A stretch of 64,000 nucleotides of DNA from a virus (IMGVR_UViG_3300043399_000788:15302-79301), one strand, 5' to 3'; positions 41,620-63,461 are shown, numbered from the stretch's first letter. A program made the numbers and translations. Notes: generated by a model from the letters alone, not told the origin.

Positions 41620-41661
41620 TTGATTTATCCATGCTCTGAAATTATAATTAGAGCATGGATA
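41620..41661 (+). promoter_or_regulatory. Consensus sigma70 promoter TTGATT-17-TATAAT inside a 12-bp inverted repeat covering the start codon
   Basis: -35 at 41620-41625, -10 at 41643-41648, ATG at 41655; arms TATCCATGCTCT (41626-41637) and AGAGCATGGATA (41650-41661). Confidence 0.75.
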
Positions 41662-41975
41662 TTCATGAGTTAGCTAAAAAATCATACGATCGAGCATTAG
41701 CTCAAAAAAATCTTGAAGAAAAACAACTTAGTCGAATGACAATAGCACATGCTAACGGCATTTGGATATGTAATGCTGAGTTAATTTGCTTATTACATTC
41801 GTATAAAAATTTAAAGGAAATAATATTGCTCGATAGCAACAAGATTCCACGCAAAGTTGACCCTGAGAAACTTCTTGAATTAGTACAAAAGAGGCACCAA
41901 GAAATTTTAAATGATTGGTTAAATGAGTATACTGCATTAACTAAAATAAGAACTGTCAATCATGTATTTGAATGA
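41655..41975 (+). CDS. Hypothetical protein, first gene of the modification operon
   Basis: 106-aa ORF overlapping the next gene. Confidence 0.7.
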   Translation: MDIHELAKKSYDRALAQKNLEEKQLSRMTIAHANGIWICNAELICLLHSYKNLKEIILLDSNKIPRKVDPEKLLELVQKRHQEILNDWLNEYTALTKIRTVNHVFE

Positions 41976-42798
41976 TAAAATTTGCATAATATCGGCAACT
42001 AATTCTATCACTGATGACAACAAAACTATTGATTATATTCAATTAGCTAGTGTAGCCGCAGATCGTGCTAGATATTATTTAGATGTTCCAACAGTATTAA
42101 TAACATCCGATACTACAATTGATAAGAAAAAAACTAATTTTGCCGAAGTAATTTTTACAGAACCTACAAAAGTAACAAAGCGTAATGTTATTGCAGGGGA
42201 AAGTATAATACAATACCAATGGTTAAATGATTTTAGAATTGATGCATACGAATTAACCAAAGGTATGGCTAAACGATTTATTATGATTGATGCAGACTAT
42301 ATGATTGCATCTGACCAATTACTTTCTTGGTTAAGAAATGATTATCATTTTTTAATATTAGATGATGTTTACGATATTACAGGATCAGGAATGTACAGAG
42401 AAAAAATACTTCCTAGTAACGATATTCCTCAACGATGGGCAACTGTAATTTCTTGGAATCAAAGTGAAGAATCAAAAATAATATTTGATACTTCTCGTAT
42501 GGTACGTGATAATTATGACTTTTATTCCCTTATTTTTGGTTTTCCTAAAACTCCATTTAGAAATGATTTAGCGTTTAGCGTTGCATGTCATTTGCACAAT
42601 ATTCCTAAAACACAAACCAAACTTTTCAATTTAGCCCCAAGCGGGTTTTTATATCAAACTAAAGATAAAAGCGGATGGATTGTTGATTTTAATGATAAGT
42701 TAATACGTTGGAACACAGACGTACACATTTTGAATAAGCAATACGCTATTGATCCTTCAATGCTTGATTTATTGAGATTAGACAATGTCAAAGCGTAA
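41962..42798 (+). CDS. GT-A fold glycosyltransferase-like protein
   Basis: Hydrophobic strand followed by DxD (FIMIDADY); PFRNDLAFSVA; HILNK. Confidence 0.6.
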   Translation: MYLNDKICIISATNSITDDNKTIDYIQLASVAADRARYYLDVPTVLITSDTTIDKKKTNFAEVIFTEPTKVTKRNVIAGESIIQYQWLNDFRIDAYELTKGMAKRFIMIDADYMIASDQLLSWLRNDYHFLILDDVYDITGSGMYREKILPSNDIPQRWATVISWNQSEESKIIFDTSRMVRDNYDFYSLIFGFPKTPFRNDLAFSVACHLHNIPKTQTKLFNLAPSGFLYQTKDKSGWIVDFNDKLIRWNTDVHILNKQYAIDPSMLDLLRLDNVKA

Positions 42799-43642
42799 TT
42801 TTAAAGATGAGCGTGGGTTTTTAACTTTTGCGGTAGGAAAAGAATACGTTAAACTTGCATATGCACAAGCATTAAGTATCAAGCTTACACAAAAAAATAA
42901 TAATGTTGCTATTATTGTAGACACTGATGCTGTACAAGAACTTGATAAGTTTGATAAAATATTTGACGAAGTAATAGTAATAAATCATACTCAAAACGGT
43001 TGGGATATGAGTCAATATTGGCAAGCGTTTAGGTTAACTCCATGGCGAGAAACTTTCTTAGTAGAAGCTGATATTATTTTCCCAACATCTATTGATCATT
43101 GGTGGGATATTGTTAGAGAACGTGAAGTTTGCTTACCTAATGCAGTTAAAGACTTTAGAGAAGATACAATAACAACTCGTCGTTATAGAAAGTTGTTTGA
43201 TGAAAATTTACTGCCAGACGTATATGCAGGGTTCGTTTATTTCCGTTATTCGCAATTTGCTATGGAATTTTTTGCATTAATTAGAATGATAATGGAAAAT
43301 TGGGAATGGGTCTCAAAAGAACACATAATTAAAAATGAAGATACTAGAATTAGAATTGATGAAGTATTTTCATTAGCTACAAGAATAATGGGAAAGCAAT
43401 ATTTAACGTTACCTTTCTCAGTCCCAACGTTCGTACACGGTAAAGGTGGTGCTTGGGGATTACGTGAACAAACACCATGGTACGAGCAATTATATGTTGA
43501 ATGGAATAAGACTGTGCCAATAATTGGTCATTACCATCAACGATTGCCTTTACATTATCATCATAAGGAATGGATATCAGATGACATCATCAAACGATAC
43601 GAACGAATCAGAAATGAACGAAACAACAATGAATCTACTTAA
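42785..43642 (+). CDS. GT-A fold glycosyltransferase-like protein (paralogue of 41962)
   Basis: GFLTFAVG..YVKLAYAQALSIK; LTPWRETFLVEADII; RIDEVFSLA; FVHGK. Confidence 0.6.
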   Translation: MSKRNFKDERGFLTFAVGKEYVKLAYAQALSIKLTQKNNNVAIIVDTDAVQELDKFDKIFDEVIVINHTQNGWDMSQYWQAFRLTPWRETFLVEADIIFPTSIDHWWDIVREREVCLPNAVKDFREDTITTRRYRKLFDENLLPDVYAGFVYFRYSQFAMEFFALIRMIMENWEWVSKEHIIKNEDTRIRIDEVFSLATRIMGKQYLTLPFSVPTFVHGKGGAWGLREQTPWYEQLYVEWNKTVPIIGHYHQRLPLHYHHKEWISDDIIKRYERIRNERNNNEST

Positions 43643-43868
43643 GGCTATTCAAGAATATAAAGAACCTGAAGTAACACCAATTGTAATTAAATTAATATAT
43701 GATCCTGAAACAACATTAGTAACAGGATTCACTTTTGAAGATACTGATAAACCTTGGGTAGAAATTACAAGGGAACAGTATGATTCAGGTCTTCCATTTA
43801 AGAAGCTAAAAGTTGTTAACGGTAAAATTGAAGAAATAACTCGCGAAACCAAAAAAAAAAACTTTTAG
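43581..43868 (+). CDS. Hypothetical protein, probably extended to 43954 by a -1 frameshift or an A12 allele
   Basis: Stops 7 nt after an A11 tract (43851-43861). The -1 frame stays open to TGA 43952-43954, which overlaps the next gene. Confidence 0.55.
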   Translation: MTSSNDTNESEMNETTMNLLKAIQEYKEPEVTPIVIKLIYDPETTLVTGFTFEDTDKPWVEITREQYDSGLPFKKLKVVNGKIEEITRETKKKNF

Positions 43869-43934: not shown

Positions 43935-44846
43935 ATGAACGAAAGAATAGTTGATATCGCAGATTTAGATTGTATCTATCTAAGTTACGACGAGCCACGA
44001 AAAGAAGAATTTTGGGCAAAAATATCAGCTATGGTGCCATGGGCAAAGCGTGTTGATGGTATCAAAGGTAGCGATGCTGCACATAAAGCAGCAGCCGCAG
44101 CTAGTGATACTGAACGCTTTGTACTAATTGATGGCGACAATCTTCCTAATCCAAAATTCTTTGATCAGCAACTTATTTTAAATTTATCAAATGAAAACTA
44201 CGTATTTCGTTGGAAAGCACTTAACAACATTAACGGGCTTACATATGGTAATGGTGGAATAAGTTGCTGGACAAAGCAATTTGTAAACAATATGAAAACT
44301 CATGAAGCGAGCTTAGGCGAAGATCATACCCAAGTGGAGTTTTGTTGGAATACAGGTTACATTGCCATGCATGATGTTTGGTCAACGACGTACCCAAATC
44401 AATCTCCATATCATGCCTGGCGTGCTGGTTTTCGTGAAGGGGTTAAGATGTGTCTTGATCGCGGAGTAAAACCATCACTAATGGATTTTCAAACACGAGT
44501 AAGTCTTGGTAACATGCGTAACTTAAGCATATGGCATAACATTGGTGCAGATGCAGAGTACGGCGACTGGGCAATACTTGGGGCTCGTATGGGAACTTAT
44601 ATGACTATGCTTGATAATTGGGATTATAGATTAGTACATGATTTTGATGAACTTAGGAAAGTCTATGATGATACCTTAATTCATCATGAATTTGTTGAAG
44701 CTAGAGATATGGATTTCTTTGGCGAACAATTAAAAGTTAAGCTTGGATTAGATATAATATACGAAGATTCTGTACACTATAGCGTATTTTTTAAGAAGTA
44801 TGCTTATGTACGTAAAAACAAAGGTATTATGGAGATTGATAGTTGA
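43935..44846 (+). CDS. Glycosyltransferase-like (GT-A) phage protein
   Basis: IYLSYDEP...RVDGIKGSDAAHKAAA...FVLIDGDN (DxD); AWRAGFREGVKM. Confidence 0.55.
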   Translation: MNERIVDIADLDCIYLSYDEPRKEEFWAKISAMVPWAKRVDGIKGSDAAHKAAAAASDTERFVLIDGDNLPNPKFFDQQLILNLSNENYVFRWKALNNINGLTYGNGGISCWTKQFVNNMKTHEASLGEDHTQVEFCWNTGYIAMHDVWSTTYPNQSPYHAWRAGFREGVKMCLDRGVKPSLMDFQTRVSLGNMRNLSIWHNIGADAEYGDWAILGARMGTYMTMLDNWDYRLVHDFDELRKVYDDTLIHHEFVEARDMDFFGEQLKVKLGLDIIYEDSVHYSVFFKKYAYVRKNKGIMEIDS

Positions 44847-45394
44847 AATTATATGTTGATGGATGCAGCTTTGTTGCAGCATCAGGTATATCGAGCGATT
44901 ACAAAATGGCAAAGTTGCTTAACGCAGATAAAGACATGAGTCTAGAAGGAAAAAGCAACTTACAAATAGTTCACGATGTTTATAAAAACATTGATAATTA
45001 TAGCCACTTCTTCATATCGTTTACGTTTAGTAATAGATTTGTCATTTTTGAAAATGGTAAGCGTTGCTTTCATATACTGCCAAATTTAGATACAAGGCGT
45101 TTTCCAGATAAAAATGATTTTGAGAAATATAAAGCATTCCACGATTTTTATTATCGACATATGAATTTAGATTTTAATAGTGCTCTAACTGATTTTTACG
45201 TTGATAGTATTATTTCAATGCTTAAGTTTTATAATAAAACGTATTTGATATATACAGTTGAACCAAGGAAAACAAAATTTCCAGATGAATTAGTTCAATT
45301 AGATTTTTTAAAATATTCCCAAATATATGATGGTCATTTTGATGAACAGGGAATGCAAGACTGGGCAAAAGATGTTAAACGGAGATTATTTTGA
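44843..45394 (+). CDS. SGNH/GDSL-like hypothetical protein (possible acyl-esterase or acyltransferase)
   Basis: N-terminal DGCSF, G.SN, and C-terminal DGHF; TTG start overlapping the upstream stop. Confidence 0.45.
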   Translation: MKLYVDGCSFVAASGISSDYKMAKLLNADKDMSLEGKSNLQIVHDVYKNIDNYSHFFISFTFSNRFVIFENGKRCFHILPNLDTRRFPDKNDFEKYKAFHDFYYRHMNLDFNSALTDFYVDSIISMLKFYNKTYLIYTVEPRKTKFPDELVQLDFLKYSQIYDGHFDEQGMQDWAKDVKRRLF

Positions 45395-46761
45395 GTGACT
45401 TTTTAAATGCCGCGCAAAACATGAAAGAAGAACTTGGCGAAGCACTGTGTCTTGCTAAGTGGCAACAGGTTAGTCTTCATCTAACTAATGGTTTAACTAA
45501 TAGTTGTTATCATCCTCCGTTGCATGAAATTGACGAAAGCTTATTGAAGGATAATCCTTCAGCATTACATAATACACCTTACAAAAAGGAACGTAGAAAA
45601 GAAATGCTTGAAGGCAAGAAGTGCAATGAATGCAGTTATTGTTGGAATATTGAAGCAACGGGTAATTTAAGTGATAGACATTATCGCAGTGGAGAACCTT
45701 GGGCAGCTATACATTTAAATAGAATACGCCAACAAAGCTGGGATAAAGATGAGGTACCAAGTTATGTTGAAGTCAATTTTAGCAATGTGTGTAATCTTGC
45801 TTGTAGTTACTGTTCTCCTCAGTTTAGCTCTACCTGGGGAGCGCAAGCGGAGAGGTTTGGAGCTTATCCCACTTCCACGCCACACAATGATCCAGAACAT
45901 TTTAAAGGAAGAAGAAAAGTTATTCCTAACAGGGAATACAATCCTTACCTAGAAGCATTTTGGAAATGGTGGCCTGCGCTATATCCACAGTTAAAGCATT
46001 TCCGTATGACTGGCGGTGAACCAATACTTGATAAGAACACTTATAAAGTATTTGATTATGTTTTAAAGAATTCAAAACCAGACCTACATTTAAATGTAAC
46101 AAGTAATTTTAGTACTGATCAAGGTTTGTTTGATTACTATCTAAGCAAAGTTAAATTACTATGTGAAGGTGAAAAAATTGAACACTTTATGCAGTTTGTA
46201 AGCGTTGATACTTTTGGTAAGCAAGCAGAATACATTAGACCAGGATTAATTTTCAAACGTTTACAAGATAACGTTGAACGTTTCTTAACAGAAATACCAG
46301 GTCGAAATAGCGTAACGTTTATTATCACTATGAACAACTTAGTTGTACCAGGCATACAAGATTTGCTTAACTGGATTTTAGAACTACGTTCTAAACATAG
46401 TCACACATATCAGCGTGTATGGTTTGATACACCACTGCTTAGGAATCCAAGTTGGCAAAGTTTACAAGTATTACCGGAAGCTTATGCTTGGAAACTCAAA
46501 CAAGTAAGAAATTGGATGCAGGAAAAGATTCTTGTAGAGGAACAGAATCGTTATGATGGATTTAAGGACTACGAGATTCAACGAATGAATCGCATTATTG
46601 CCATGATGAAACAACATAGCGATAATAAAAATTTAAAAGCAGATTTTTATCGTTTCTTTAATGAACACGATCGTCGACATAACCTAAAATTTACAGAAGT
46701 ATTTCCAGACATGCTAACTTTTTGGGATGAATGTAAGTATTGGGCAGACAATGCATTGTAA
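45391..46761 (+). CDS. Radical SAM protein with N-terminal Twitch/SPASM-like Fe-S domain
   Basis: CLAKW...SCYHPP...CSYC, then CNLACSYC (CX3CX2C) and TGGEP. Confidence 0.9.
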   Translation: MSDFLNAAQNMKEELGEALCLAKWQQVSLHLTNGLTNSCYHPPLHEIDESLLKDNPSALHNTPYKKERRKEMLEGKKCNECSYCWNIEATGNLSDRHYRSGEPWAAIHLNRIRQQSWDKDEVPSYVEVNFSNVCNLACSYCSPQFSSTWGAQAERFGAYPTSTPHNDPEHFKGRRKVIPNREYNPYLEAFWKWWPALYPQLKHFRMTGGEPILDKNTYKVFDYVLKNSKPDLHLNVTSNFSTDQGLFDYYLSKVKLLCEGEKIEHFMQFVSVDTFGKQAEYIRPGLIFKRLQDNVERFLTEIPGRNSVTFIITMNNLVVPGIQDLLNWILELRSKHSHTYQRVWFDTPLLRNPSWQSLQVLPEAYAWKLKQVRNWMQEKILVEEQNRYDGFKDYEIQRMNRIIAMMKQHSDNKNLKADFYRFFNEHDRRHNLKFTEVFPDMLTFWDECKYWADNAL

Positions 46762-47875
46762 ATTTTTAACAAATGGGGTAAGAATAAATGAAGATGGATC
46801 TGTTGTTCCTTGTTGCGAATTTACTGGCAACATAGGTATTAATATTTCTAAAGATTTTAATTTTGAAGGATATTTTTCTTCTCCACAAGTTACTGATTTA
46901 AAAGAAAAGTTATCTAATAATATATGGCCAAGCCAGTGTTCTCAGTGTGAGAACAAAGAAAAGTTAAAGCATTTTAGTGCTCGTCAACGTGCTAATATTG
47001 AATTACCTAAAGGGTTAACAGTTGACATTGTAATAGGAAGAGAATGCAATAGTGACTGCGTAATGTGTTACGCTGGGCAGAGCAGTAAAATATTTTCTAG
47101 AATTAAAAAGACAAAACCAACATTTGATGTGCCAAGTGAAGATCAATATTGGATCACTGAAAACAGTGACATCGACTACAATTGGGTTGAAAACGAAAAA
47201 TTTTGGAATCAACTTAAAGAAAATTTTGAAAACATTAGCAAAGTAAAATTCATTGGCGGAGAACCGTTATTAAGCAAAAAACTTTGGCGTTGGTTACAAG
47301 ATGAAAATATTATTTCTAAAAAGCATAATAAACGTTTAGAAATTGTGACTAATGGCAGCATTTTTAATGCAGACAAAAATCAATTATTAACAGGGTGGGA
47401 AAAAACTAGTTTAACAGTTAGTATTGATTCTACAGAAAAAGAATATGAGTGGATTCGACAAGGATTACATTGGGAAGAAGTTAGTAATAATACAATCAAG
47501 TATAGTAACCTCGATAACGTTGTTGTTTCTGTTCACGCTACTATCAACTTATATAATGTTGCTACATTAGGAAATCTTGTTAGTTGGGCAAACGATAATA
47601 ATTTACTTTTTACATTTACCCCTGTAACATCTCCATCTTTATTATCAATTAAATATGCACCTATTAATATATTAAATCAAACATTAATAGAAATTGATAA
47701 GATTAAATCATTCAAAATACAAAATAGCATTCAATTAAAAGGTTTAAAAAATCTACTAAAAAATGCAATTGAGAATAATATTGAAAATGTTGAACTAAGA
47801 AAAAGTATAACTAATTATTTTAATAATCATAGACAACACTGCATGGATTGGGAAACACTAAAATGTATGACATAG
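46751..47875 (+). CDS. Radical SAM protein with N-terminal Twitch/SPASM-like domain
   Basis: MHC...GSVVPCC...CSQC; CNSDCVMC; GGEP. Start placed at ATG 46751, which overlaps the upstream gene. Confidence 0.88.
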   Translation: MHCKFLTNGVRINEDGSVVPCCEFTGNIGINISKDFNFEGYFSSPQVTDLKEKLSNNIWPSQCSQCENKEKLKHFSARQRANIELPKGLTVDIVIGRECNSDCVMCYAGQSSKIFSRIKKTKPTFDVPSEDQYWITENSDIDYNWVENEKFWNQLKENFENISKVKFIGGEPLLSKKLWRWLQDENIISKKHNKRLEIVTNGSIFNADKNQLLTGWEKTSLTVSIDSTEKEYEWIRQGLHWEEVSNNTIKYSNLDNVVVSVHATINLYNVATLGNLVSWANDNNLLFTFTPVTSPSLLSIKYAPINILNQTLIEIDKIKSFKIQNSIQLKGLKNLLKNAIENNIENVELRKSITNYFNNHRQHCMDWETLKCMT

Positions 47876-49323
47876 TTTTAATTCATGTTCCTTATATGTT
47901 TAACACTAATCCGCCTCTTGCTGCACCATTGCTTAAAGCTTGTTTAGCAGAACATGACATTAATGCATATACTATTGACTTTAACATTGAGTTTATCAAA
48001 TCAAACGTTAGCACAAAGTCCATCATAGCTTGGCTGCAAAAACCAGATTTGTTCCCAAATAAAGACGAATATCTAACATACAAAAATTGGGTAGAAGAGT
48101 CAGTTAAGCGTGCTTTAGCTCTTAATCCAAAATGGATTGGAATATCTGTTTTTACAAAAGATAGTCAGTTAGCAGCAGAAGATTTTGCTTGTGCAATTAG
48201 AAAATTGTCACCAACAACTAAGATATTAGTTGGAGGGTTAGGTGCTAATGTTAATTTAGGGCAGTGGAATTTATCATGGTATCAACTTGCATTTGATTCA
48301 AACTTAGTTGATACTGTCATAATAGGTGAAGGTGAAAAAGCTATTGTTGATGTAATTAAAAACGATAAGCATGGCATAATTAAAGCACCGCAGTTAAACG
48401 TAGCAGAACTTGATTCTGTTCCTATGCCAGATTTTAGTGATTACACACTAAGCAATTATTACTCAGATTTAGATAAAGACACAATTGCTATTCCAATTAC
48501 TGCCAGCAAAGGATGCATTCGTGATTGTACATTTTGCGATGTAGGTAAGCATTGGCCTAATTTTAATTCACGTAGCGGTAACAAAGTAGCATCTGAGATA
48601 ATCAGTTTTTACAAGGATTACGGTTTCAAATATTTCCGTTTTACTGACAGTTTGATTAATGGTAATGTTAAAGAGTTTAGAATAATGAATGCTAAACTAT
48701 CTGAGGAATTGCCAAACACAGTAAAGTATAGAGGTCAATTTATTTGTAGACCAAAAAATCAAATGCCATTAGAAGATTTTGCGTTGATGGCAAAAGCAGG
48801 CGCATACAGAGTTCAAATTGGCATTGAAAGTGGTAGCGAGGCAGTACGGCACCATATGCGTAAAAAGTTTTCAAACAATGATATAGAATATTCTACATAT
48901 GAGCTTTATAATAACGGTATCAAACAGAGCTGGTTTATATTCGTTGGATATCCAACTGAAACATTGGATGATTTTAAGGAAACTTTGAAGTTAGTTGAAA
49001 AATACAAAGACCTTGCTAAATATCAAATGGTTCAGATTATCCCAACTGGTGTATTTCAAATGTTAGATGGAACTCCAATTGCTGAGCAAGATATGTTAAC
49101 TGCTCTAGAAATAGAACAGCACATAGTTGGGGGCTATCAAACATATGCATGGACAAGCAAGCTGTATCCAGAAAATACATTTGCTGAGCGTGCTCGTAGA
49201 TTTAAAGAACTAGTTGATCTTTGTAAGTCCTATAATTTAATCTCAGAGTTTGAAGATATGGTTGAAGGACATATAAAGATGATAAATTATCAGGAGTTAA
49301 AAATCATTGGCGGAAACTATTAA
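47863..49323 (+). CDS. Cobalamin-binding radical SAM enzyme (class B methyltransferase-like)
   Basis: PPLAAPLLKA...IGISVF...ILVGG...GEGE (B12-binding domain); SKGCIRDCTFC; IGIESGS..VR..MRK; IFVGYPTET. Confidence 0.9.
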   Translation: MYDIVLIHVPYMFNTNPPLAAPLLKACLAEHDINAYTIDFNIEFIKSNVSTKSIIAWLQKPDLFPNKDEYLTYKNWVEESVKRALALNPKWIGISVFTKDSQLAAEDFACAIRKLSPTTKILVGGLGANVNLGQWNLSWYQLAFDSNLVDTVIIGEGEKAIVDVIKNDKHGIIKAPQLNVAELDSVPMPDFSDYTLSNYYSDLDKDTIAIPITASKGCIRDCTFCDVGKHWPNFNSRSGNKVASEIISFYKDYGFKYFRFTDSLINGNVKEFRIMNAKLSEELPNTVKYRGQFICRPKNQMPLEDFALMAKAGAYRVQIGIESGSEAVRHHMRKKFSNNDIEYSTYELYNNGIKQSWFIFVGYPTETLDDFKETLKLVEKYKDLAKYQMVQIIPTGVFQMLDGTPIAEQDMLTALEIEQHIVGGYQTYAWTSKLYPENTFAERARRFKELVDLCKSYNLISEFEDMVEGHIKMINYQELKIIGGNY

Positions 49324-49717
49324 GTTTACACTAAAAACATTACGTTTGCCAAACAAGAATCCTGAGATTTTGTTTTGCGGTCAGCACATGATATTGGAAC
49401 AAGATGAAATAGAAGTTCCGTACATTGTTAATTTAGGCAGCAATGACATTACTATTCAACTACTAAACAAATCTAATCGAGATACTAAAGTTGTGGATGG
49501 AAACATAGTTGCAGACCTTGCGGTGATTGTTGATAAGATTGAATACAGAGGACATAATTTGCATTCTTATATTGAAACTATTGGCAAGTATGTTGACGAC
49601 AATAATCAGCTAATACAAGGGACGCACGGGTTTATGGCTTTCAATGGTATACTAACAATACGCATTGATGGACCTGTATTTGTTTATATGAGAGATTTGG
49701 CTATACAAAATGGATAA
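49307..49717 (+). CDS. Hypothetical protein
   Basis: 136-aa ORF overlapping both neighbours. Confidence 0.6.
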   Translation: MAETIKFTLKTLRLPNKNPEILFCGQHMILEQDEIEVPYIVNLGSNDITIQLLNKSNRDTKVVDGNIVADLAVIVDKIEYRGHNLHSYIETIGKYVDDNNQLIQGTHGFMAFNGILTIRIDGPVFVYMRDLAIQNG

Positions 49718-54483: not shown

Positions 54484-55789
54484 ACATTGCTTAGCTCCTT
54501 GGACACACACTTATCTTTCGCCACAAAGCGAGAGACGGTTGTGTTGTGCAAGTCGTGAACCAGCACAAAACTTTAAGCAATACATTGATACAGAAGAAGG
54601 TAGTAACGAATACAAGCCCGCTACGCTAGAAGAACATTGGAACAGCGATCACATGAAAAGTGTTCGTAGACGAATGATGGCAGGTGAAGAACTACCTGAG
54701 TGTGAGGTTTGTAATAAGAAGCTGTTAAACACTAGCGTATACCGCGACTACTTTAACGGAATGTTTGGTAGTAAGCGGGAAGAATTATTAGCAAATACTT
54801 TACCAGATGGTACACATAATGGACTGCCAATTAGTTTTGATTATCGTGTATCTAACCTCTGCACATTCAAATGTCGTATGTGCGGCCCACCACTAAGCAG
54901 TGCATGGGAAAGCGAAGAACGTCAATACAATCCAAACTTTACAGAAAGTAATCCATGGGGCGTGCCAAACGTTAGACGAGAAATAACAAAGTTCCAACGT
55001 ACAGTTGCTATTGAAGAACTATGGCGTGCTATTAAAGAAGAACGCATAGAGGAAATATATTGGGTTGGCGGAGAACCGTTGGATTGGCCAGAGCATTGGG
55101 AAATGATGAAGTATATGGTCGCTAACGACATTGCTAAAAATGTTTATGTGCGATACAATACTAACCTCAACAACATTTATCATACGTTATACGAAACTAA
55201 AACAGTAAAAGATACGCTGTGTTTGTTTGATTTGCTAAGTGAGTTTAAAGACTGGCAGATTTGTGCGAGTTTAGATGCAGTGTGGCGTGATGGTGAATAC
55301 ATACGCACGGGATTAGACTGGGATAAGTTTGTTTTTAATCTCAGCACGGGTTCTAAATATGTTACTCATAGTAGACAGTTACGACTTGACCTAACACTTA
55401 CGCTTCCTGGCATGATGCAGTTAGATCATTACGTTGGATTTGCAGATCAGTATGGGGTAGACATACTTACAAAGGTTGTGTTTGCGTTTACCCCAGATAT
55501 TATTATGAGTCCTCTTGCACTGCCTCGTCCACTACTAACTGATTTAGTTGAGTATTGGATTAATGACCTTGAACTACGACATAAAAGACATAGCTCGTTG
55601 ATTGATACATTGCAAAACTTGCTTAAACGTCCAACATTCCAAGAGCAATGGCCTAACGAATACATTATGGGATTATGGCAAGGTAAAGCAAGAATATTAG
55701 AACTTGAACAAAGACGCGGCGACACTTATACTATGGGAGATATATTATCTCATATACCAAAAATAAAGGAATGGTGGGATGCCATCTAA
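54473..55789 (+). CDS. Radical SAM protein with N-terminal Twitch/SPASM-like domain
   Basis: CLAPW...RRLCC...CEVC; CTFKCRMC; VGGEP. Confidence 0.9.
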   Translation: MTDKHCLAPWTHTYLSPQSERRLCCASREPAQNFKQYIDTEEGSNEYKPATLEEHWNSDHMKSVRRRMMAGEELPECEVCNKKLLNTSVYRDYFNGMFGSKREELLANTLPDGTHNGLPISFDYRVSNLCTFKCRMCGPPLSSAWESEERQYNPNFTESNPWGVPNVRREITKFQRTVAIEELWRAIKEERIEEIYWVGGEPLDWPEHWEMMKYMVANDIAKNVYVRYNTNLNNIYHTLYETKTVKDTLCLFDLLSEFKDWQICASLDAVWRDGEYIRTGLDWDKFVFNLSTGSKYVTHSRQLRLDLTLTLPGMMQLDHYVGFADQYGVDILTKVVFAFTPDIIMSPLALPRPLLTDLVEYWINDLELRHKRHSSLIDTLQNLLKRPTFQEQWPNEYIMGLWQGKARILELEQRRGDTYTMGDILSHIPKIKEWWDAI

Positions 55790-56942
55790 GGTAAAAGTAG
55801 TATTACGCGACTACAGAACAAATCATAAGATTGATTACACAATACTTCCACACGAACATGAACTTGCAGATAAATGGATTGTTGCATTAAAAGAGTTATT
55901 AGCGAATGGCAACATTCTTGAAAAGAATTACTGTTGGCATGGTTGGCCTAACAGTCCTCGCACATTGCAATATCTATGTGACGAACTTAATCGTCATATT
56001 CACACAATTAACAATCCAGTTGTGCAAGGTTATTGGATTGATAAAGGACTTGAACCATATGTTATTGAAGAACACTTCACACCTGATGCAGTACGTTTCC
56101 CTAACACTTATGGCATGGGGCTGACAGAAGAATTAAAACAAAAAGGTTTACGTGAAGAACTTGCGCTGTCACTAAGCTTAAAACACGGTATTATGAACAA
56201 GCTTCACAATCACTTTGAGTTACTACAAGGCACTGTTGAAAACTTAAGTCCATATTACAAGTATGCAGACAATGATGCAAAGTGGGCAATACGCCAGCTA
56301 AACTTGCTTTGTCACGAGATTGAAAGTCTGTGCTTAAGTCAACGCAAAAAAGCATTTGACCCAGACTGGATACGCCCGAGTCAAATCACTACATGGCTAA
56401 GCGCACCTCGCTATGACTTAGCAACCTCTGACAGAGAGCTGTTTAATGTAAACGAATACGACCGTGTATTTGGTGGCGTGTATATGCATTGGTGTCAAAT
56501 TGGTAAGACACTGTTTGAAGTATGGCGTGATGAAAATGCGCCTAATATTGATAAAACTACATGTGATGCAATAACAGAATTACAATACTTCTCAGGCGAG
56601 TTTGATATTGAATGGGGGCGTGATGTTACACGCAATGATCCTTGGCATAAAGAAGAAATTAATAAATTTCAAGCATGGTTATGTAAGCAAGGATATGATC
56701 CATTTGATAATGCTGGACTAAGTTTAGGTTATTTGCCAATTGGGCAAGTTGACTTGCAAGGCAGTTTTGGTACAGATAATTTCCATAGTATTATTGATCG
56801 CATGGGCGATTACTTAGACATTTACAAAATAGAAGTAGATGGTGTTAGCGCAACATACGATTATCATTGGAGTGATTGGGATTGGCGTGAAAAACAAATA
56901 AAGTTCTTAACACCAGGATACAGGCACAGCTCTAATGTTTGA
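55779..56942 (+). CDS. Hypothetical protein (His/Trp-rich; LNxHIH and LHNHFE motifs)
   Basis: 387-aa ORF translationally coupled on both sides. Confidence 0.7.
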   Translation: MPSKVKVVLRDYRTNHKIDYTILPHEHELADKWIVALKELLANGNILEKNYCWHGWPNSPRTLQYLCDELNRHIHTINNPVVQGYWIDKGLEPYVIEEHFTPDAVRFPNTYGMGLTEELKQKGLREELALSLSLKHGIMNKLHNHFELLQGTVENLSPYYKYADNDAKWAIRQLNLLCHEIESLCLSQRKKAFDPDWIRPSQITTWLSAPRYDLATSDRELFNVNEYDRVFGGVYMHWCQIGKTLFEVWRDENAPNIDKTTCDAITELQYFSGEFDIEWGRDVTRNDPWHKEEINKFQAWLCKQGYDPFDNAGLSLGYLPIGQVDLQGSFGTDNFHSIIDRMGDYLDIYKIEVDGVSATYDYHWSDWDWREKQIKFLTPGYRHSSNV

Positions 56943-58257
56943 TGTCTTTATAATGGACATGGGCGGTCATGATGAAAACGTAACAAAGATTACGATGCAA
57001 TTGCCACATGCTCGACCTATGCGTTATATGACTAGTCATTTAGAAATGGTTAAAAGAGCAGCAGCAAAGTCACGTACAGAATATTTTTGGTTAATTGCTA
57101 GTTGTTGCGATTATAGCAACTTTGATTTTAGTTATGTTCCCGCTCCTTGGGAACGTGAACACATACATTGTTGGGCAAGTGGTAATCAAAAGTTTGGTGA
57201 TACTTTTTTAGTAAATGTTGATGGTTGGAAAAATCAAGAAAATATTGAAAAATTAGAATGGTATAATCATGTAAATTATCATTCTCTAGGTGTTACAAGA
57301 TTACCTTGGCCAGTTATTAAAGCATCTGCCAATTTAGCACAAACTGTTTTAAAACAACAGTTCAAAAGTTTGTATGTAGAACTGCAAACAGCCAATGCAT
57401 TAGGTTCTGCACATTATGATCCTTCTCTTTGGGAAAACCGCGAAATAATAGCCTTTAATCGTACTGGACATATAACATTGTGCCCAAGAGACGCAAAACA
57501 ACAAATTAAGACGCAGATTTTTGACTACCACTATATAAAGTATGTCAACGACCAAAATTTAGCTTATAAACCACAAGATATTGTGTTTATTTCTTATGAT
57601 GAAAAAAATGCTGAAAGCAACTGGAAAAAGTTACACACAGAGCACCCTAGAGCAAAGCGTGTACACGGTGTAAAAGGTCTTGTTCCTGCAATTAAAGCAG
57701 CAGCAATGGAAAGTACTACAGATTGGTTTTATGCTGTTTTTGGTAAAACTGAAATAGTGGATAGTTTCAAATTTGATCATTATCTAGACTATTTGCGACA
57801 TCCTGCAAACTATGTTTTTCAAGCATATAATCCAATTTTAGATTACAGTTATGGTCATGATGGTGTTGTAATGTATGATAAAAATTGGGTACTATCTATT
57901 GAAGAATGGGATTTAGATCTAACAATGAGTCATGAAGTTGTTAGTGTTCCTATTGTAAGCTGTATTAATAGATTAGATATTAGTGCTTGGTCAGCGTGGC
58001 GAACAGCATTTAGAGAAGCTTATAAATTAAGCTATTACTTAGACAAACGCCCGAGCATTGACGACGAATATCACTTGCATCTCTGGTTAACAAAAGACAA
58101 CACTGTGATGGGAAAGTATAGTAAATTGGGCGCTCAGCAAGGCAGAGAATATTATCTTGCTAATCGTTCAAAAGATTACAGTGTCAATGATTGGAGTTGG
58201 TTGCAGGATTTATTTAATCGAACAATGCAGGAACACCAGCTTGTTGATCCTGTTTAG
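56935..58257 (+). CDS. Two-domain glycosyltransferase-like protein; C-terminal half paralogous to 43935
   Basis: DIVFISYDE...AKRVHGVKG...IKAAA..S.TDWF...AWRTAFREAYKL. Confidence 0.55.
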   Translation: MFDVFIMDMGGHDENVTKITMQLPHARPMRYMTSHLEMVKRAAAKSRTEYFWLIASCCDYSNFDFSYVPAPWEREHIHCWASGNQKFGDTFLVNVDGWKNQENIEKLEWYNHVNYHSLGVTRLPWPVIKASANLAQTVLKQQFKSLYVELQTANALGSAHYDPSLWENREIIAFNRTGHITLCPRDAKQQIKTQIFDYHYIKYVNDQNLAYKPQDIVFISYDEKNAESNWKKLHTEHPRAKRVHGVKGLVPAIKAAAMESTTDWFYAVFGKTEIVDSFKFDHYLDYLRHPANYVFQAYNPILDYSYGHDGVVMYDKNWVLSIEEWDLDLTMSHEVVSVPIVSCINRLDISAWSAWRTAFREAYKLSYYLDKRPSIDDEYHLHLWLTKDNTVMGKYSKLGAQQGREYYLANRSKDYSVNDWSWLQDLFNRTMQEHQLVDPV

Positions 58258-59452
58258 TTGCCCATACAGCTAAGCTAACAGCATGATCAAAAGCATCAAG
58301 CATTTCAGTATCTGAAGGTAAGTACTCAAACGGTTTTCCAGCAAGATGCTTTTTAATTACATCTTCTATACCATCTTTGACATTGCCTATAATAAACTTA
58401 TTACTACCTGGTCTATCTAAAAAAGCTGTTTCGTGATAAACGTAAATGTTTCCTAATATATCAACTTGTATACTTGCTTGCGGTAGACCATACCCATCTA
58501 ATTGATTATACTTTGCCATACGTAACGGACCAATGCGCTGTCCGCGTTGCAATGGATCTAATGCGTAACCATAATCAATATTACAGTGCGGTATATGTTT
58601 TTCAATGAGATTGTTAGCTTCGTGTATTATGTCTATTAGTTTTTGTCTTTCACTATCATCAATATAAATCAGGTCTTGGCTAAAATCTTCTCTTACAGTA
58701 ATAAAGTTTAATGGGCGCTTCATACTGTCTTGTAATTTAATTAAAGCATAAATGAGCTTCAAGTAATCATCAGAATGCCCTGGTAACACGATATAGTTTA
58801 CACCTAGATTAGTATTGTGTAGTTCTAATTGTTTGAGATTTTCACTCACAGTAGTCCAAGCATTTTGCTTTTTGGTAATTTGAAAATAACTATCATCGTT
58901 GTGTCCATATACACTAATTCGTAACATCTTTAAGTCGTTGAGTTTTTCAGAGTATTTAGGGGAAAGCATATAGCCATTTGTATACATGCTAACGTTATAC
59001 CCAAGTTGCTTTGCATGTGTAGCAAGTTCTCCAACACGCGGATTAGTAAGAGGTTCTTGACCACCGCTAATACGAAAACGATCTTGCCAATCTGCACCAC
59101 TACGAGGACTATCTGTTATGAGTTGTTTATATAACTCCATTCCTCTATCAAGGGTATTACGTTCATACGCTGCGCTTTTATTACGACCACAAAACCCACA
59201 GTAGAACATACAACTTAATCCAGCAAATAACCCTACCCTATGGGGGTAAATATATTCGTTATTGATAATAGCAGACAAGTGCTTTGAATTAACAAGCGGT
59301 AGTAATGTGTTTTTCCAATACTTAGATTTATAACGCAATTGATTATGAATATATTCTTTATGCATAGTGATCCATTTATGATCTTCAAAAGAAGATAGAG
59401 GTTTGAATGGATCCTGTATTAACTGGTTTATTGCATTGTTAATGTCAATCAT
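58214..59452 (-). CDS. desII: DesII/EryCV-like radical SAM NDP-4-amino-4,6-dideoxyhexose deaminase
   Basis: VGLFAGLSCMFYCGFC, SGGQEPLTNP, YTNG, ITVREDFS, IDYGYAL, QVDILGNIY and DAFDH are collinear with motifs recalled for Streptomyces DesII. Confidence 0.8.
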   Translation of the reverse strand: MIDINNAINQLIQDPFKPLSSFEDHKWITMHKEYIHNQLRYKSKYWKNTLLPLVNSKHLSAIINNEYIYPHRVGLFAGLSCMFYCGFCGRNKSAAYERNTLDRGMELYKQLITDSPRSGADWQDRFRISGGQEPLTNPRVGELATHAKQLGYNVSMYTNGYMLSPKYSEKLNDLKMLRISVYGHNDDSYFQITKKQNAWTTVSENLKQLELHNTNLGVNYIVLPGHSDDYLKLIYALIKLQDSMKRPLNFITVREDFSQDLIYIDDSERQKLIDIIHEANNLIEKHIPHCNIDYGYALDPLQRGQRIGPLRMAKYNQLDGYGLPQASIQVDILGNIYVYHETAFLDRPGSNKFIIGNVKDGIEDVIKKHLAGKPFEYLPSDTEMLDAFDHAVSLAVWATKQDQQAGVPALFD

Positions 59453-59458
59453 ACTATA

Positions 59459-59487: not shown

Positions 59488-59491
59488 TTTA

Positions 59492-60070
59492 ATGTTACCA
59501 AGCAATATTGAATTCATACATATACCAAGAACAGGCGGCACAACAGTTCTTACGCATTTAAGTGAACTTGATTCGGTTAAGTTTAACATAGATCGTCCTC
59601 ACGTTACTGCCAATCAAATGTTGGCAATGGATTCAAATTTCCGTAAGAAATATTCATTCTCTTACATACGCAATCCATTTCAACGTCTAGTAAGTATATG
59701 GCAATATGAATTAAAACGTGCATTAGGATCAAAAGATCCAGACTTTGCTAAATTAAATGATTTTAATGAATGGTTGAAGTATTACGCCAGCAACTTAGAT
59801 TGGGGTCGAAGCTTTATGGTATTGCCCCAATGGTTTTGGATTAGCGATTGGACAAACTCAATTGAAATAACTGAAATTTATCGTTACGAAGATTATGATT
59901 ATTGGTTAGAGCATCTCGAGAAGAAAATTAATTACACTTTTAATAAAACAGTAATTGCTAACAGAAGTATGAAACAGTACAATTACAAAGACATAACTAC
60001 ACAAGAGTCAAGAAAAATAATGGTTGATTTATGTTATGCCGACTGCGATAGATTTGGTTATAGGTGGTAA
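59492..60070 (+). CDS. Sulfotransferase family 2-like protein
   Basis: 5'-PSB motif FIHIPRTGGTT and 3'-PB motif IRNPFQRLVS; C-terminal Y..D..RFGY. Confidence 0.8.
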   Translation: MLPSNIEFIHIPRTGGTTVLTHLSELDSVKFNIDRPHVTANQMLAMDSNFRKKYSFSYIRNPFQRLVSIWQYELKRALGSKDPDFAKLNDFNEWLKYYASNLDWGRSFMVLPQWFWISDWTNSIEITEIYRYEDYDYWLEHLEKKINYTFNKTVIANRSMKQYNYKDITTQESRKIMVDLCYADCDRFGYRW

Positions 60071-61201
60071 ATGCAAGTTCCTTTATATAGACACAATTTA
60101 ATAAACGAAGATACAGAAGCATTAGGTAAAAAGTTTGGTGAAATGCTTTCAGGTATGATGATCAGTACTGGTCCAGTTAACAAAGAAGTAAGTGAAAAGT
60201 TTGCAGCATACATGGAACGCAAGCATTGTTTGCTAACATCAAGTTGGAGTGGCGGAATGCAAGCAACTCTTTTAGCATTAGGAATTAAACCAAATGATGA
60301 AGTTATTATTCCTGCGATGACATTTGCGGCTACTGCAAATATTATAGAAGTATTAGGTGCAAAACCTGTGCTTGTTGATATTAAAGAAGATACAAAATTG
60401 ATTGATTTTACTAAAATAGTACCAGCAATTACTGAAAGAACAAAAGCAGTAATACCTGTGCATTTGTATGGTCAAATGGTAGATATGAAAAAGTTAAGAG
60501 AGTTAATACCATCGCATATTCATATTATTGAAGATGCTGCACATGCAATTGAATCTATGTATAATGGTTATCGCCCAGGAACATATTCAAATGCAGCAGT
60601 TTTTAGCTTTTATCAAAGCAAAAATATGACTACAGGTGAAGGTGGTGCAATAGTTACAGATGATGAAAAACTATACAACAAAATCAAATTAACATACAGA
60701 CACGGTGTAGATTTATGTGGTTATCAAAGGCACATTAGAGAAGAGTTTATCGCACCAGATGTTGTAACAGCAGGCATTAAAGCTAACATGCCAGATATTC
60801 TTGCAATAATGCTTCCTCCTCAAATTGAAAGAGCAGAGCAGAACTTACATCGTAGACAGGAGATTGCTAAGCGTTATATGAGAGAACTAAATGGCTTAGT
60901 TTCTTTTCCAGTAATTGATCCGCTAGCTAAAACTGCATGGCATATTTTTGCTATTGGGGTTGATCCAAACAAGCGTGAAAAGGCGTTGGTTTATCTTTAT
61001 AACAACGGAGTGCGTACAACTATTCACTTTAAGTCGATGCACATGACTAGCTATTATAACAGTAAGTACGGATATTATCCAACAGATTTTCCCAATGCAT
61101 ATTATTGGGGAGAAAGTGTTTTTAGCTTACCTATATTCCCTGGGTTGACAGAAGAAGAACAAACTCACGTTATTGAACAAGTTAAATTGTCGCTCGCTTA
61201 A
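60071..61201 (+). CDS. DegT/DnrJ/EryC1/StrS PLP-dependent sugar aminotransferase
   Basis: PAMTFAATAN, IPVHLYG, IIEDAAHA, FSFYQSKNMTTGEGG (PLP lysine), SLPIFP. Confidence 0.93.
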   Translation: MQVPLYRHNLINEDTEALGKKFGEMLSGMMISTGPVNKEVSEKFAAYMERKHCLLTSSWSGGMQATLLALGIKPNDEVIIPAMTFAATANIIEVLGAKPVLVDIKEDTKLIDFTKIVPAITERTKAVIPVHLYGQMVDMKKLRELIPSHIHIIEDAAHAIESMYNGYRPGTYSNAAVFSFYQSKNMTTGEGGAIVTDDEKLYNKIKLTYRHGVDLCGYQRHIREEFIAPDVVTAGIKANMPDILAIMLPPQIERAEQNLHRRQEIAKRYMRELNGLVSFPVIDPLAKTAWHIFAIGVDPNKREKALVYLYNNGVRTTIHFKSMHMTSYYNSKYGYYPTDFPNAYYWGESVFSLPIFPGLTEEEQTHVIEQVKLSLA

Positions 61202-62594
61202 TTAAGCGTTGTGACCAATCAACACCAAAGACGCGGTCACTTTTGATCTGATCAAGTAATAGAGTAGCCGCGTTATCAAAACTATCGATGTATTCTAAAT
61301 CTTTTTGTGTATAGCTGTATAATTTGTCACTTTCAACATGATTTTGTACAACAGTGGCTAAATCGTTTTCACCAACACGACCAATAATATACTTATCAGC
61401 TCCTTCTTTTCCTAAGTAAGCTGTGCCATGATACACATAAGCATCACCTAAACTGTCCACTTGTAAACTTAATTGCGGGAAACCTTTGCCATCCATAATA
61501 GTATATGGTGTACGCATAATATTACCAAAATCTGTGTAGCCAGTTAGCAATGGCGTCAGTGCATATCCATAATCAATTTTAGTATTAAGGTTGCCTGCTT
61601 TCTGTTCTTCCTTAATCCAATCAAATATTTGAATAAGCTTGAGTCTATCCTCAGACGTAAGTCCTGTTTGCTCTGGGCTATAATCTTCTCTTAATGTTAG
61701 AAAGTCAATTGACCGCCCAGCTTCTCTTCCGGTGTCACGGATCACTTCAATAAGTGTCTTAACGCAGTCAGCAAGCCCCGGTAAGATAATCCAGTTAATT
61801 CCAATCTTCATGGAACTATCACGTTCTTTTGCAGCTCTGAGGAAATCTACAATGTTTTGACGCACAATGCTAAAGCTGTTTAGCTTTTGTGTAGTTGCAA
61901 GGTAACTTGCATCATCAATACCATACATACTAACACGTAGCGCATGTAAGTCCCAAATACCTGGATTTTTAGCAACCCATGTCTTTGTGAGATTATGTCC
62001 GTTAGTATAAATTTGCATTCTAAAACCACGCTCTTTTGCATAGCTAATAAGCGCAGGTACATGTGGATTAGTAAGTGGTTCATGCCCACCACTAATACGA
62101 AAACGATCTGGCCAATCTAATGTGTCCTTTGGATCTTCATCAATTAGTCGCTTAAACACATTAAACCCATGATCAGCTTGTTCGCGTGTATAGTTTGCAT
62201 AATAGTTACGTGGGCAGAAGTGGCAGTAGAACATGCAACTAAGACCAGGATGCAAACCAATACGGTTAGGGTAAGCGTACACATTGTTTAATGCAGACTT
62301 AAAATGATGGCTGCTGCAAAGTGGAATGATTGTGTTTAACCAATAAGCACTGCTCGGTGCATACTCTGTAATAAGAGTTTGTACAGCTTCGTTTTCACGT
62401 AGCTGCATATTGATCTTTAGTAGTTCATCTTTTGTTAGGTTATACTTCTTTGCAAGTGTTTCTTGCTTTGTAAATGGATCAAGACAAAAGTCAATTACAA
62501 TATCCTTTGCAACACCATCTAATCCAATTAACCCAACTGTATCTTCAAAGCGATCAAGTAATCTAACTCTATCAAAACTATATCCAACTCGCAT
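61182..62594 (-). CDS. desII: Second DesII/EryCV-like radical SAM deaminase (470 aa)
   Basis: IGLHPGLSCMFYCHFC, SGGHEPLTNP, PGIWDLHALRVSMYG, TLREDYS, IDYGYAL, QVDSLGDAY. Start placed at ATG 62594 with AAGG SD. Confidence 0.85.
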   Translation of the reverse strand: MRVGYSFDRVRLLDRFEDTVGLIGLDGVAKDIVIDFCLDPFTKQETLAKKYNLTKDELLKINMQLRENEAVQTLITEYAPSSAYWLNTIIPLCSSHHFKSALNNVYAYPNRIGLHPGLSCMFYCHFCPRNYYANYTREQADHGFNVFKRLIDEDPKDTLDWPDRFRISGGHEPLTNPHVPALISYAKERGFRMQIYTNGHNLTKTWVAKNPGIWDLHALRVSMYGIDDASYLATTQKLNSFSIVRQNIVDFLRAAKERDSSMKIGINWIILPGLADCVKTLIEVIRDTGREAGRSIDFLTLREDYSPEQTGLTSEDRLKLIQIFDWIKEEQKAGNLNTKIDYGYALTPLLTGYTDFGNIMRTPYTIMDGKGFPQLSLQVDSLGDAYVYHGTAYLGKEGADKYIIGRVGENDLATVVQNHVESDKLYSYTQKDLEYIDSFDNAATLLLDQIKSDRVFGVDWSQRLIKRATI

Positions 62595-62630
62595 GTGCTT
62601 ACCTTTTATTATATGTGTATATATACTTGT

Positions 62631-63461
62631 ATGAAACCAGTGGCAATTACATTTGTTGATGCAAAGTTTGAACAACTAGCCAAAGAACAAAAAACAAACT
62701 TCAATAACTTTAACATAAAGCACGTAACCATTCCAATAAAAAATCAAAAATATAATATATTCCTTTGGATAGATTTATTAGATGAAACAATTGCAGCAAT
62801 TAAAACTTACGGAAAAGTATTTCGAGTTGATAGTGAAATACGTATACATCAACTATTACCGCAAGAATGGGAAGAGAATGAAAATGTTTTGTTCTTCATT
62901 GAACCAATTGTTCGCAGTCCTTGGTATATTGCTATTAACACCGGACACATGATTTTAAGTGAAAGTGCAATACCATTTCTACAATGTTTAAAGGAAATGA
63001 CGTTAGCATTAGTTCCCCCAAACTATAAAAATGAAAAGCTAGGATTTGATGACGAAGATTTAACAGCACCTGCCCTTGCTGTTACTAAAATACCATATCA
63101 TAAAGAAGTTATTAATTATGAACGTTGTGATGAGTCCATTTCACGTTGTACAAGAGGATATTGGTATACTAAGCATACAGTTATTACTCATCCATTTATC
63201 CATAATTGGAATACACCTAATCACGGATTAGACGATCGTATGATATTTAGGAATCATTTTATTCCAAATCAATCTGTAAAAATCGTAGATGCAGTGTTAC
63301 TTGGATTGCGTAATAAAACTAATAATGAAAATTATTGGAACAAACTTGGATTTCAAAAGTATGGAGTATATTGGAAGAAGGATGAATGGTTAGTTCATCC
63401 TTCTACAGGCTCATATTCACATACTGCGTATGATAGCTTTAAACAGCCATTTCAGCCTTAA
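62631..63461 (+). CDS. Hypothetical protein, possibly GT-A nucleotide-diphospho-sugar transferase-like
   Basis: VFRVDSE, INTGH and DDED motifs loosely resemble GT-A; probable start MKPVAITF at 62631. Confidence 0.4.
   Translation: MKPVAITFVDAKFEQLAKEQKTNFNNFNIKHVTIPIKNQKYNIFLWIDLLDETIAAIKTYGKVFRVDSEIRIHQLLPQEWEENENVLFFIEPIVRSPWYIAINTGHMILSESAIPFLQCLKEMTLALVPPNYKNEKLGFDDEDLTAPALAVTKIPYHKEVINYERCDESISRCTRGYWYTKHTVITHPFIHNWNTPNHGLDDRMIFRNHFIPNQSVKIVDAVLLGLRNKTNNENYWNKLGFQKYGVYWKKDEWLVHPSTGSYSHTAYDSFKQPFQP

Follow-up and report, generated by a model that had tools for sequence, protein, structure and literature searches.

We analysed a 64,000-nt stretch of viral DNA (IMGVR_UViG_3300043399_000788:15302-79301; hereafter the window), which covers bases 15302-79301 of a 79.3-kb IMG/VR record with a CheckV completeness of ~17%. 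Among the sequencing runs, the phage DNA was found only in its probable source sample, a freshwater metagenome. Immediately downstream of three tail-fibre genes the window carries an island (41655-63461) whose 22 predicted products include nine radical S-adenosylmethionine (SAM) enzymes and several glycosyltransferase (GT)-like proteins (Table 1), and whose most likely role is to make an unusual sugar decoration and then modify it. A previous sequence-only reading had described this island as one 22-kb system, with nine radical SAM genes after the last fibre gene (six twitch-type, one B12-type, and two DesII-like), about six GT-like genes, a sugar aminotransferase, a sulfotransferase, and an SGNH-like protein, of which 41655-58257 formed an almost fully overlapping operon behind one promoter. 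All nine radical SAM genes were present at that place, the aminotransferase and the sulfotransferase both matched their Pfam families, and the open reading frames (ORFs) from 41655 to 58257 overlapped by 4-47 nt with a single gap at 43868-43935. The promoter-like element ahead of them was the sole TTGA[CT]N-16..18-TATAAT match in the 64 kb.

Six of the nine radical SAM ORFs, R1 to R6, encode N-terminal-twitch (N-twitch) enzymes, as had been proposed. All six passed the curated cut-off of 170 bits for NF033640 (N_Twi_rSAM) over the whole model, with 195-404 bits, and fit its architecture, in which a Cys-rich auxiliary-cluster domain precedes the CX3CX2C core. The CX3CX2C motif (C134/C138/C141), like four N-terminal Cys, was invariant in all six paralogues. 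A Pfam SPASM match at residues 6-110, ahead of the Radical_SAM match, was found in 4/6 ORFs; in R4, the nearest of the six to bacterial family members, the N-terminal SPASM match covered residues 46-110. The paralogues were mutually 19-33% identical (32% between R3 and R1), fell into two subtypes, and appear to be old. NF033640 itself is a catalogue entry, expanded here to six divergent paralogues in a fixed order beside genes for proteins with GT-A folds.

Four of the six or so proposed GT-like genes were supported, namely GTa278, the GT8-like gene, GTc303, and the C-terminal half of u440, and those tested had GT folds, while the products of 53458, 55779, and 62595 had no fold or family match. 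Neither GTa278 nor the GT8-like protein had a Pfam family at E <= 0.01, and so neither has sequence-family membership in Glyco_transf_8/CAZy GT8. The family profile of the GT8-like protein matched glycogenin chains at 1e-8 with the DxD aligned, and the top Foldseek matches of its AlphaFold2 (AF2) model (pLDDT 95) were glycogenin (2e-9), LARGE1, Skp1 galactosyltransferase, and UGGT. D96 was invariant in this protein and D104 nearly so. GTa278, found in 68/81 of the related loci described below, had no PDB sequence match and aligned with the GT8-like family in hhalign over 232 columns (probability 99.2%, E 2e-19). GTc303 was the best-conserved core protein, with a mean column identity of 69% among 24 relatives. 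Its AF2 model (pLDDT 75) matched GT2 enzymes and PBCV-1 A64R in Foldseek at ~1e-3, and VIA gave Z 8-9 over residues 5-160, tied between GT-A enzymes and IspD/RmlA-type nucleotidyltransferases. Reading of the N-terminal sequence showed no glycine-rich nucleotidyltransferase loop, the BFVD matches were mostly viral GTs, the Che8 GT was among the weak structural matches, and the nearest Atlas clusters were viral and GT2-like. The C-terminal half of u440 was 28% identical to GTc303 over 260 residues (BLASTP E 3e-18) and had F-G-K-T-E at the DGD position of the family alignment; its N-terminal domain had no PDB match.

A profile of the GT8-like protein recovered at least 578 viral loci in IMG/VR, of which 80 were kept and, together with L001, compared by tblastn and ORF assignment (81 loci). 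The recurring order was F214, F494, F300, a106, GTa, GT8, small ORF, GTc, R1, R3, R4, R5, R6, u387, and u440 where the flank reaches. The proposed link to fibre genes extended to relatives: the core order following the same fibre genes was kept in ~70/81 loci at protein identities of 25-60% (42-83% for R6), with the fibre block upstream of the island in 56-74/81 loci and F494 in one to four copies. Nine contigs binned into metagenome-assembled genomes (MAGs) had the same block or its fragments. The sole isolate with the core was Ralstonia phage RsoM2USA, in which a reduced form with one radical SAM gene (ORF348-354, comprising a106, GTa, GT8, x, GTc, R1, and GTc') lies downstream of the fibre and structural genes ORF355-361, among whose products are three known from virions by mass spectrometry (MS). 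The RsoM2USA enzyme, ORF349, was a homologue of R1 (35% identity), the sole N-twitch gene retained in minimal modules.

Other parts of the island were absent or nearly absent in relatives: the 183-aa ORF, R2 as a distinct orthologue (no part of any of the 81 loci had it as the best match), the B12 and 136-aa pair, both DesII-like genes, the sulfotransferase, and the 62595 ORF. By gene comparison, then, the island appears two-layered, with a conserved core (41655-58257 minus inserts) and variable accessory cargo. The proposal of one 22-kb system did not survive, as the accessory end (58214-63461) was common to no relative examined. Cargo slots lie between u387 and u440 and after u440, and in relatives they held carbamoyltransferases, DUF6071/GDSL proteins, an FNR-like reductase, DegT aminotransferases, a PIG-L deacetylase, and short-chain dehydrogenase/reductases (SDRs) of the NDP-sugar 4,6-dehydratase/epimerase type. 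A canonical thymidylate synthase, ThyA with PCH and PFNIAS motifs, followed the cargo in L085 and in this window. Because carbohydrate chemistry is common to the GT-A folds and to every identified accessory family except the FNR-like reductase, the predicted enzymes point to carbohydrate chemistry, in agreement with the sequence-only reading, which had drawn this from the enzyme mix (here GT-A folds, aminotransferase, sulfotransferase, and DesII-like enzymes).

The accessory end, in which two DesII-like radical SAM genes surround the aminotransferase and the sulfotransferase, appears peculiar to this window. DesII (TIGR04426) was the best family for both radical SAM proteins, which were 41% identical to each other, and both missed the equivalog cut-off, so that they classify as DesII-like and not as DesII. 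A tblastn search of 50,697 phage records gave no match to DesII-like b, and IMG/VR yielded no close relative of it. Two DesII-best enzymes flanking a DegT aminotransferase recall the DesI/DesII step of desosamine synthesis (TIGR04427/TIGR04426), but here the equivalog cut-offs were missed, the aminotransferase was nearer ArnB/PseC (ArnB 277, PseC 244, and DesI 154 bits, all below cut-off; PLP_DesI cut-off 650), and the module was absent from all relatives examined. DegT genes as such often followed u440 in relatives (L001, L084-L086). The sulfotransferase was short, at 192 aa against a 252-position profile, and had no homologue in the 81 loci. For the B12-type enzyme, present in 3/81 loci, the radical SAM assignment stood (Radical_SAM 61.9 bits, with a class-B appearance) and the B12-binding domain fell short at 24.4 bits against the Pfam cut-off of 32.1; its best NCBIfam matches were RiPP (ribosomally synthesised and post-translationally modified peptide) C-methyltransferase and PhpK families, all below cut-off.

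Table 1 Features of the island and of its left flank in the window.
Feature	Position	Strand	Description
F214, F494, F300 (fibre block)	38507..41612	+	Left neighbour, outside the operon; candidate acceptor; matches to PHROG tail-fibre families and Peptidase_G2
Promoter-like element and hairpin	41620..41661	+	TTGATT-17-TATAAT overlapping a 14-bp hairpin, with the a106 start codon in the right arm of the hairpin
a106	41655..41975	+	Small conserved first core gene
GTa278	41962..42798	+	GT8-like GT-A protein, distant paralogue of the 42785 product; D110-x-D112 invariant
GT8-like	42785..43642	+	Glycogenin-like, retaining-type GT-A protein
Small variable ORF	43524..43868	+	Between the GT8-like and GT2-like genes
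GTc303	43935..44846	+	Probable N-terminal GT-A (GT2-like) domain, C-terminal helical domain; D66-G-D68 invariant
183-aa ORF	44843..45394	+	Specific to the window
R1	45391..46761	+	N-twitch radical SAM, core; NF033640 312 bits; conserved position
R2	46727..47875	+	Extra N-twitch radical SAM, outside the conserved core order; NF033640 199 bits
B12-type radical SAM	47848..49323	+	Putative class-B (B12-binding), methyltransferase-like; accessory
136-aa ORF	49307..49717	+	Linked to the B12 enzyme; among the related loci, found solely in those with the B12 gene (L001/L003)
R3	49710..51035	+	N-twitch radical SAM, core, R1 subtype; NF033640 310 bits; conserved order
R4	51020..52333	+	N-twitch radical SAM, core; NF033640 404 bits
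R5	52287..53465	+	N-twitch radical SAM, core; NF033640 333 bits; conserved order
u341	53458..54483	+	Copy number and position variable
R6	54473..55789	+	N-twitch radical SAM, core; NF033640 282 bits
u387	55779..56942	+	Conserved core protein; invariant Cys/His/Glu columns
u440	56935..58257	+	Last core gene; C-terminal half a GTc303 paralogue, DxD replaced
DesII-like a	58214..59452	-	Accessory radical SAM; TIGR04426 269 bits (cut-off 450)
Sulfotransferase	59492..60070	+	Short Sulfotransfer_2 (PF03567), 32.3 bits (cut-off 22); accessory
Sugar aminotransferase	60071..61201	+	DegT/DnrJ/EryC1 family, PF01041 329 bits; accessory here
DesII-like b	61182..62675	-	Accessory radical SAM; TIGR04426 343 bits (cut-off 450)
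288-aa ORF	62595..63461	+	Island end

We regard fibre decoration, that is, a tailored glycan on one of the virion proteins in the neighbouring distal fibre set, as the best single hypothesis, with a probability of about 45%. The island would then encode a carbohydrate pathway that runs wholly in the cytoplasm and is transcribed early or independently. Its core (two GT8-type proteins, one GT2-like protein, R1, R3-R6, u387, and u440) would assemble a short glycan from host nucleotide sugars, and the radical SAM enzymes would edit this glycan by abstracting an H atom. The auxiliary cluster would accept an electron, and oxidation, epimerisation, deoxygenation, or C-C/C-O coupling would be the possible outcomes. 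The cargo of this window might contribute an amino/deamino (DesI/DesII-like) branch and sulfation, and the B12 enzyme might carry out C-methylation. Gene content, folds, motifs, synteny, and transcription signals were observed, whereas the substrates, the acceptor, and what the radical SAM enzymes do are inferred; the most likely candidate acceptor is a virion protein of the adjacent fibres.

Several lines of evidence favor this hypothesis. The adjacency of core and fibre genes is deeply conserved, GT-A folds with intact DxD are supported in three core proteins (41962, 42785, and 43935), the solved structures nearest in fold to the modelled GT8-like protein belong to enzymes whose substrates are proteins or protein-bound glycans, and secondary clusters of N-twitch genes lie beside a cytidylyltransferase/mannose-6-P-isomerase fusion gene and a methyltransferase gene in a complete relative. 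We also count in its favor the cargo families found in relatives, the retention of both cluster motifs by all six N-twitch paralogues, the lack of membrane spans in the island products, and the single ThyA-type gene of complete relatives. Ser, Thr, and Asn together made up 28-33% of F494 and F300 vs ~15% of the enzymes. Auxiliary-cluster radical SAM enzymes of the BtrN type oxidise a sugar C-H, and giant viruses glycosylate their own structural proteins with self-encoded GT-A enzymes. BtrN and the glycan-making giant viruses (PBCV-1 A64R, mimivirus fibrils) served us as a working analogy, with A64R among the fold matches of GTc303. The twitch domain of BtrN is at the opposite protein end from that of the island enzymes, and no sequence match between BtrN and the island radical SAMs was obtained.

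Several results weigh against fibre decoration, starting with the pathway itself. Five related genomes had no RmlA-type sugar nucleotidyltransferase (PF00483), which is why host nucleotide sugars are the likely input, and for the proposed deoxy-sugar route no 4,6-dehydratase (PF01370) was found in the 79-kb record (~17% of the genome). Acceptor and product are candidates only. A PDB search with the N-twitch family gave no solved member (SkfB was the top sequence match, at 1.5e-4), and the literature yielded no characterised member or reaction. N-twitch genes were also not confined to the island: two complete relatives had 7 and 16 copies per genome, some of them in secondary clusters elsewhere. 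In the larger of these, G003 (357 kb), there were 16 NF033640 matches, two of them with in-frame stops, and its secondary clusters (e.g., L167 7966-14203) contained u341-like genes, the cytidylyltransferase/mannose-6-P-isomerase fusion, and a methyltransferase; secondary N-twitch clusters were also found among recombination genes.

Transcription signals also separate the island from the fibre genes. The hairpin at its promoter folds at -23.3 kcal/mol (z -6.2), and a hairpin with a T-run, a terminator ahead of the island, was at the same place in 20/55 distinct relatives. A TTGACN-16..18-TANNNT element lay upstream of the a106 homologue in 29/55 of these relatives, as compared to 1% of control windows. 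The octamer AATAAATA occurred in the window only as five plus-strand copies (3497, 10655, 11056, 28871, and 39173), each of them 11-40 nt ahead of the start of a structural gene and none in the island. We consider it a candidate late-promoter motif of this phage, close to T4's TATAAATA. By these signals the island appears to be a transcription unit of its own with a sigma70-type promoter, apart from the fibre operon. Because of its own promoter, the lack of AATAAATA, and the terminator in relatives, adjacency to the fibres may only mark a boundary between late and early modules.

The bacterial relatives of the N-twitch enzymes do not point to sugars. R4 relatives were encoded at 412 bacterial or MAG loci in Bdellovibrionota, Elusimicrobiota, Bacteroidota, and Paenibacillus, and arrays occurred there too. 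In an Elusimicrobia MAG (L140, 25-15158), six consecutive genes encode proteins of 543-1078 aa that join a long tetratricopeptide repeat (TPR) array, hinting at protein binding, to an N-twitch radical SAM domain, and a Paenibacillus N-twitch gene adjoined SDR and ketosynthase (fatty-acid-type) genes. These contexts make a protein substrate a live rival. A seventh TPR-radical SAM gene was next in L140 (15331-16818), with its SPASM domain C-terminal instead.

The N-twitch enzymes might therefore modify protein, introducing RiPP-like cross-links, epimerisation, or C-methylation on fibre or other virion proteins while the GTs add sugars in parallel, an explanation we consider unlikely. SPASM/twitch radical SAM enzymes of known reaction are mostly peptide maturases, and the island lies directly after fibre genes, which along with the TPR fusions would suit it. 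RiPP maturases were among the secondary NCBIfam matches of the six paralogues, as were MoaA, viperin, and NirJ-type families, but all of these were far below cut-off and no RiPP maturase model scored above it. No precursor peptide was recognised, though short ORFs were not searched systematically, and the fibre proteins contain 0-1 Cys, making thioether links unlikely. The identified accessory families in the slots, the FNR-like reductase excepted, are sugar-directed.

A second alternative, somewhat less probable again, is that the island makes a free tailored amino-sugar metabolite, similar to an aminoglycoside or nucleoside antibiotic, during infection, for example for use against competing phages or to manipulate the host, and does not decorate the virion. 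The combination of twitch and B12 radical SAMs, DegT aminotransferase, carbamoyltransferase, PIG-L deacetylase, and GTs would be in keeping with this, since aminoglycoside pathways hold a similar enzyme mix (BtrN, GenK, TobZ, BtrD, StrB1). The island's own sigma70-type promoter and two further radical SAM genes upstream of the window in the same record (minus strand, record 11214-13412) also fit. However, family scans of the island turned up no cyclitol synthase, export, or self-resistance gene, the core position after fibre genes was conserved across deep divergence, and proteins or glycans are the substrates of the enzymes nearest in fold to the GT8-like ones. We give slightly less credence to the fuller version, a phage-borne biosynthetic cluster with a host-type promoter that makes a free amino-sugar metabolite, in which the N-twitch family performs undescribed sugar C-H chemistry.

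About as improbable as a free metabolite is remodelling of a host envelope glycan (lipopolysaccharide (LPS) or capsule) that blocks superinfection. This role has been proposed for GT8-rich, radical-SAM-containing islands adjacent to fibres, and GT8 includes LPS-core transferases (PMC7029224). The early-type promoter would suit such a role. None of the 22 island products had a membrane-spanning segment, however, and therefore no flippase, polymerase, or Gtr-type machinery is encoded; lasting serotype conversion would also presumably be of little gain to lytic jumbo phages. Both alternatives raised by the sequence-only reading, host-surface remodelling and DNA hypermodification, were thus weakened, the latter by the single ThyA, and dedicated host-surface machinery and DNA glycosylation are disfavoured. 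Hypermodification of phage DNA with a tailored sugar is very improbable: although phage GTs are classically DNA-modifying, the promoter is of an early type, and a thymidylate synthase adjoins, that gene is the canonical ThyA, the two complete relatives (329 and 357 kb) had one such gene each and no second, hydroxymethylase-type paralogue, a 91%-complete relative had none, no 5-hydroxymethylpyrimidine route is visible given the lack of such a paralogue in these relatives, and nothing here ties the N-twitch family to DNA glycan tailoring.

Our search of the literature on radical SAM enzymes and virion glycosylation, and on jumbo-phage fibres and GTs, found no study of the island, and megablast of the island against isolated phages gave no match. 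The nearest description is that of the pelagimyophage 'host recognition cluster', with GT8 glycosyltransferases, LPS-type sugar genes, and radical SAM cassettes among tail-fibre genes (PMC7029224). Compared by description only, the likeness is in GT8 and radical SAM genes beside fibres in T4-like aquatic myophages; that paper mentions the genes in passing, proposes modification of the host O-chain, and describes a hypervariable region in contrast to the fixed core order here. A new lineage of large aquatic phages, the 'moraphages', has four core GT orthogroups (PMC12619734) and is a candidate identity for the clade of our phage. The module in our window is real and widespread, a chemically uncharacterised phage carbohydrate/radical-SAM module.

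To our knowledge, the virion glycosylation systems of mycobacteriophages include no radical SAM enzymes. In mycobacteriophages, virion proteins are decorated by phage GTs whose genes neighbour structural genes (Freeman et al. 2023, cited in PMC12619734), and the targets are capsid and tail-tube C-termini, identified by MS, whereas the island is described here by sequence and predicted structure. Should its product be placed on the fibres, the aquatic jumbo phages of an abundant clade (>6,000 distinct u387 clusters, >=578 IMG/VR loci) would be editing their host-recognition surface chemically, with a radical enzyme family for which we found no described reaction. Phage host range and the avoidance of recognition by hosts or grazers would thereby gain a further layer, and NF033640 would obtain its first function. 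The 5 to 16 divergent N-twitch paralogues per genome, which keep a fixed order in the core island, are a possible source of new radical carbohydrate chemistry, and since the cultured phage RsoM2USA carries a minimal module, the question is directly testable there.

The phage itself appears to belong to the RaK2/Atu_ph07-like giant T4-like jumbo myophages, based on its baseplate wedge protein (11089-14517), which matched phrog_10646 at 4e-300 and was 33-35% identical to those of Salicola SCTP-2, Agrobacterium Atu_ph07, Cronobacter GAP32, and Klebsiella RaK2. Between this gene and the fibre genes is a single ORF for a 4783-aa protein (14521-28872), with corresponding genes in Phosso (13.7 kb) and Atu_ph07 that carry a virion structural protein annotation, and two fibre-like proteins of ~1600 aa each are also encoded upstream of the island. 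In each of the cultured phages Atu_ph07 (gp165-gp172) and Phosso (283-291), the homologues of F214 and F494 are followed at once by a stretch of hypothetical genes with three annotated radical SAM genes dispersed among them, and both phages are without the GT8/N-twitch core. Two of the three Phosso radical SAMs gave marginal tblastn matches (E 0.001-0.03) to island radical SAMs, and the Atu_ph07 record had no match in the R4 search. By sequence comparison these clusters appear non-homologous to the island and occupy the same spot after homologous fibre genes, which we count in favor of the fibre link.

The small and unassigned island proteins differed in distribution. Homologues of a106 (69 ORFs in related loci) invariably followed the last fibre gene and preceded the two GT8-like genes, and a106 had no family match above threshold in Pfam, NCBIfam, or PHROG. 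The small variable ORF had homologues in only 4-5 loci, yet a similar-sized ORF filled the same gap in relatives. The proposed SGNH-like protein, the 183-aa ORF, was not borne out: it had no Pfam, NCBIfam, or PHROG match and no homologue in the 81 loci, and only a weak BLASTP match (E 0.026) to a GDSL/DUF6071 protein of locus L085. The 136-aa ORF had no match in the same three collections, nor did the 288-aa ORF, which also had none in PDB. The u341 family (38 ORFs in related loci) recurred beside N-twitch radical SAMs also away from fibres, in the G003 secondary clusters, and had no Pfam match (20 relatives; 65 listed family matches) and no PDB match; its motif may resemble that of GT10 fucosyltransferases. 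With at least 6434 cluster representatives (90% identity) in metagenomes and no Pfam domain among the 120 family matches listed, u387 is a very abundant unnamed protein family; it had no PDB match. An Atlas lead to PcfJ (score 0.92, 167 shared features) was too weak to use, and similarity to the di-iron Fe-S repair protein DnrN (NCBIfam E 0.015) is a lead only.

N-twitch-like genes also occur in another isolate. In the KVP40-like Vibrio phage K566 (record 161548-168284), several such radical SAM genes alternate with hypothetical genes; this cluster is not beside recognisable fibre genes, and a PagP-like gene and a nicotinamide phosphoribosyltransferase gene are near it.

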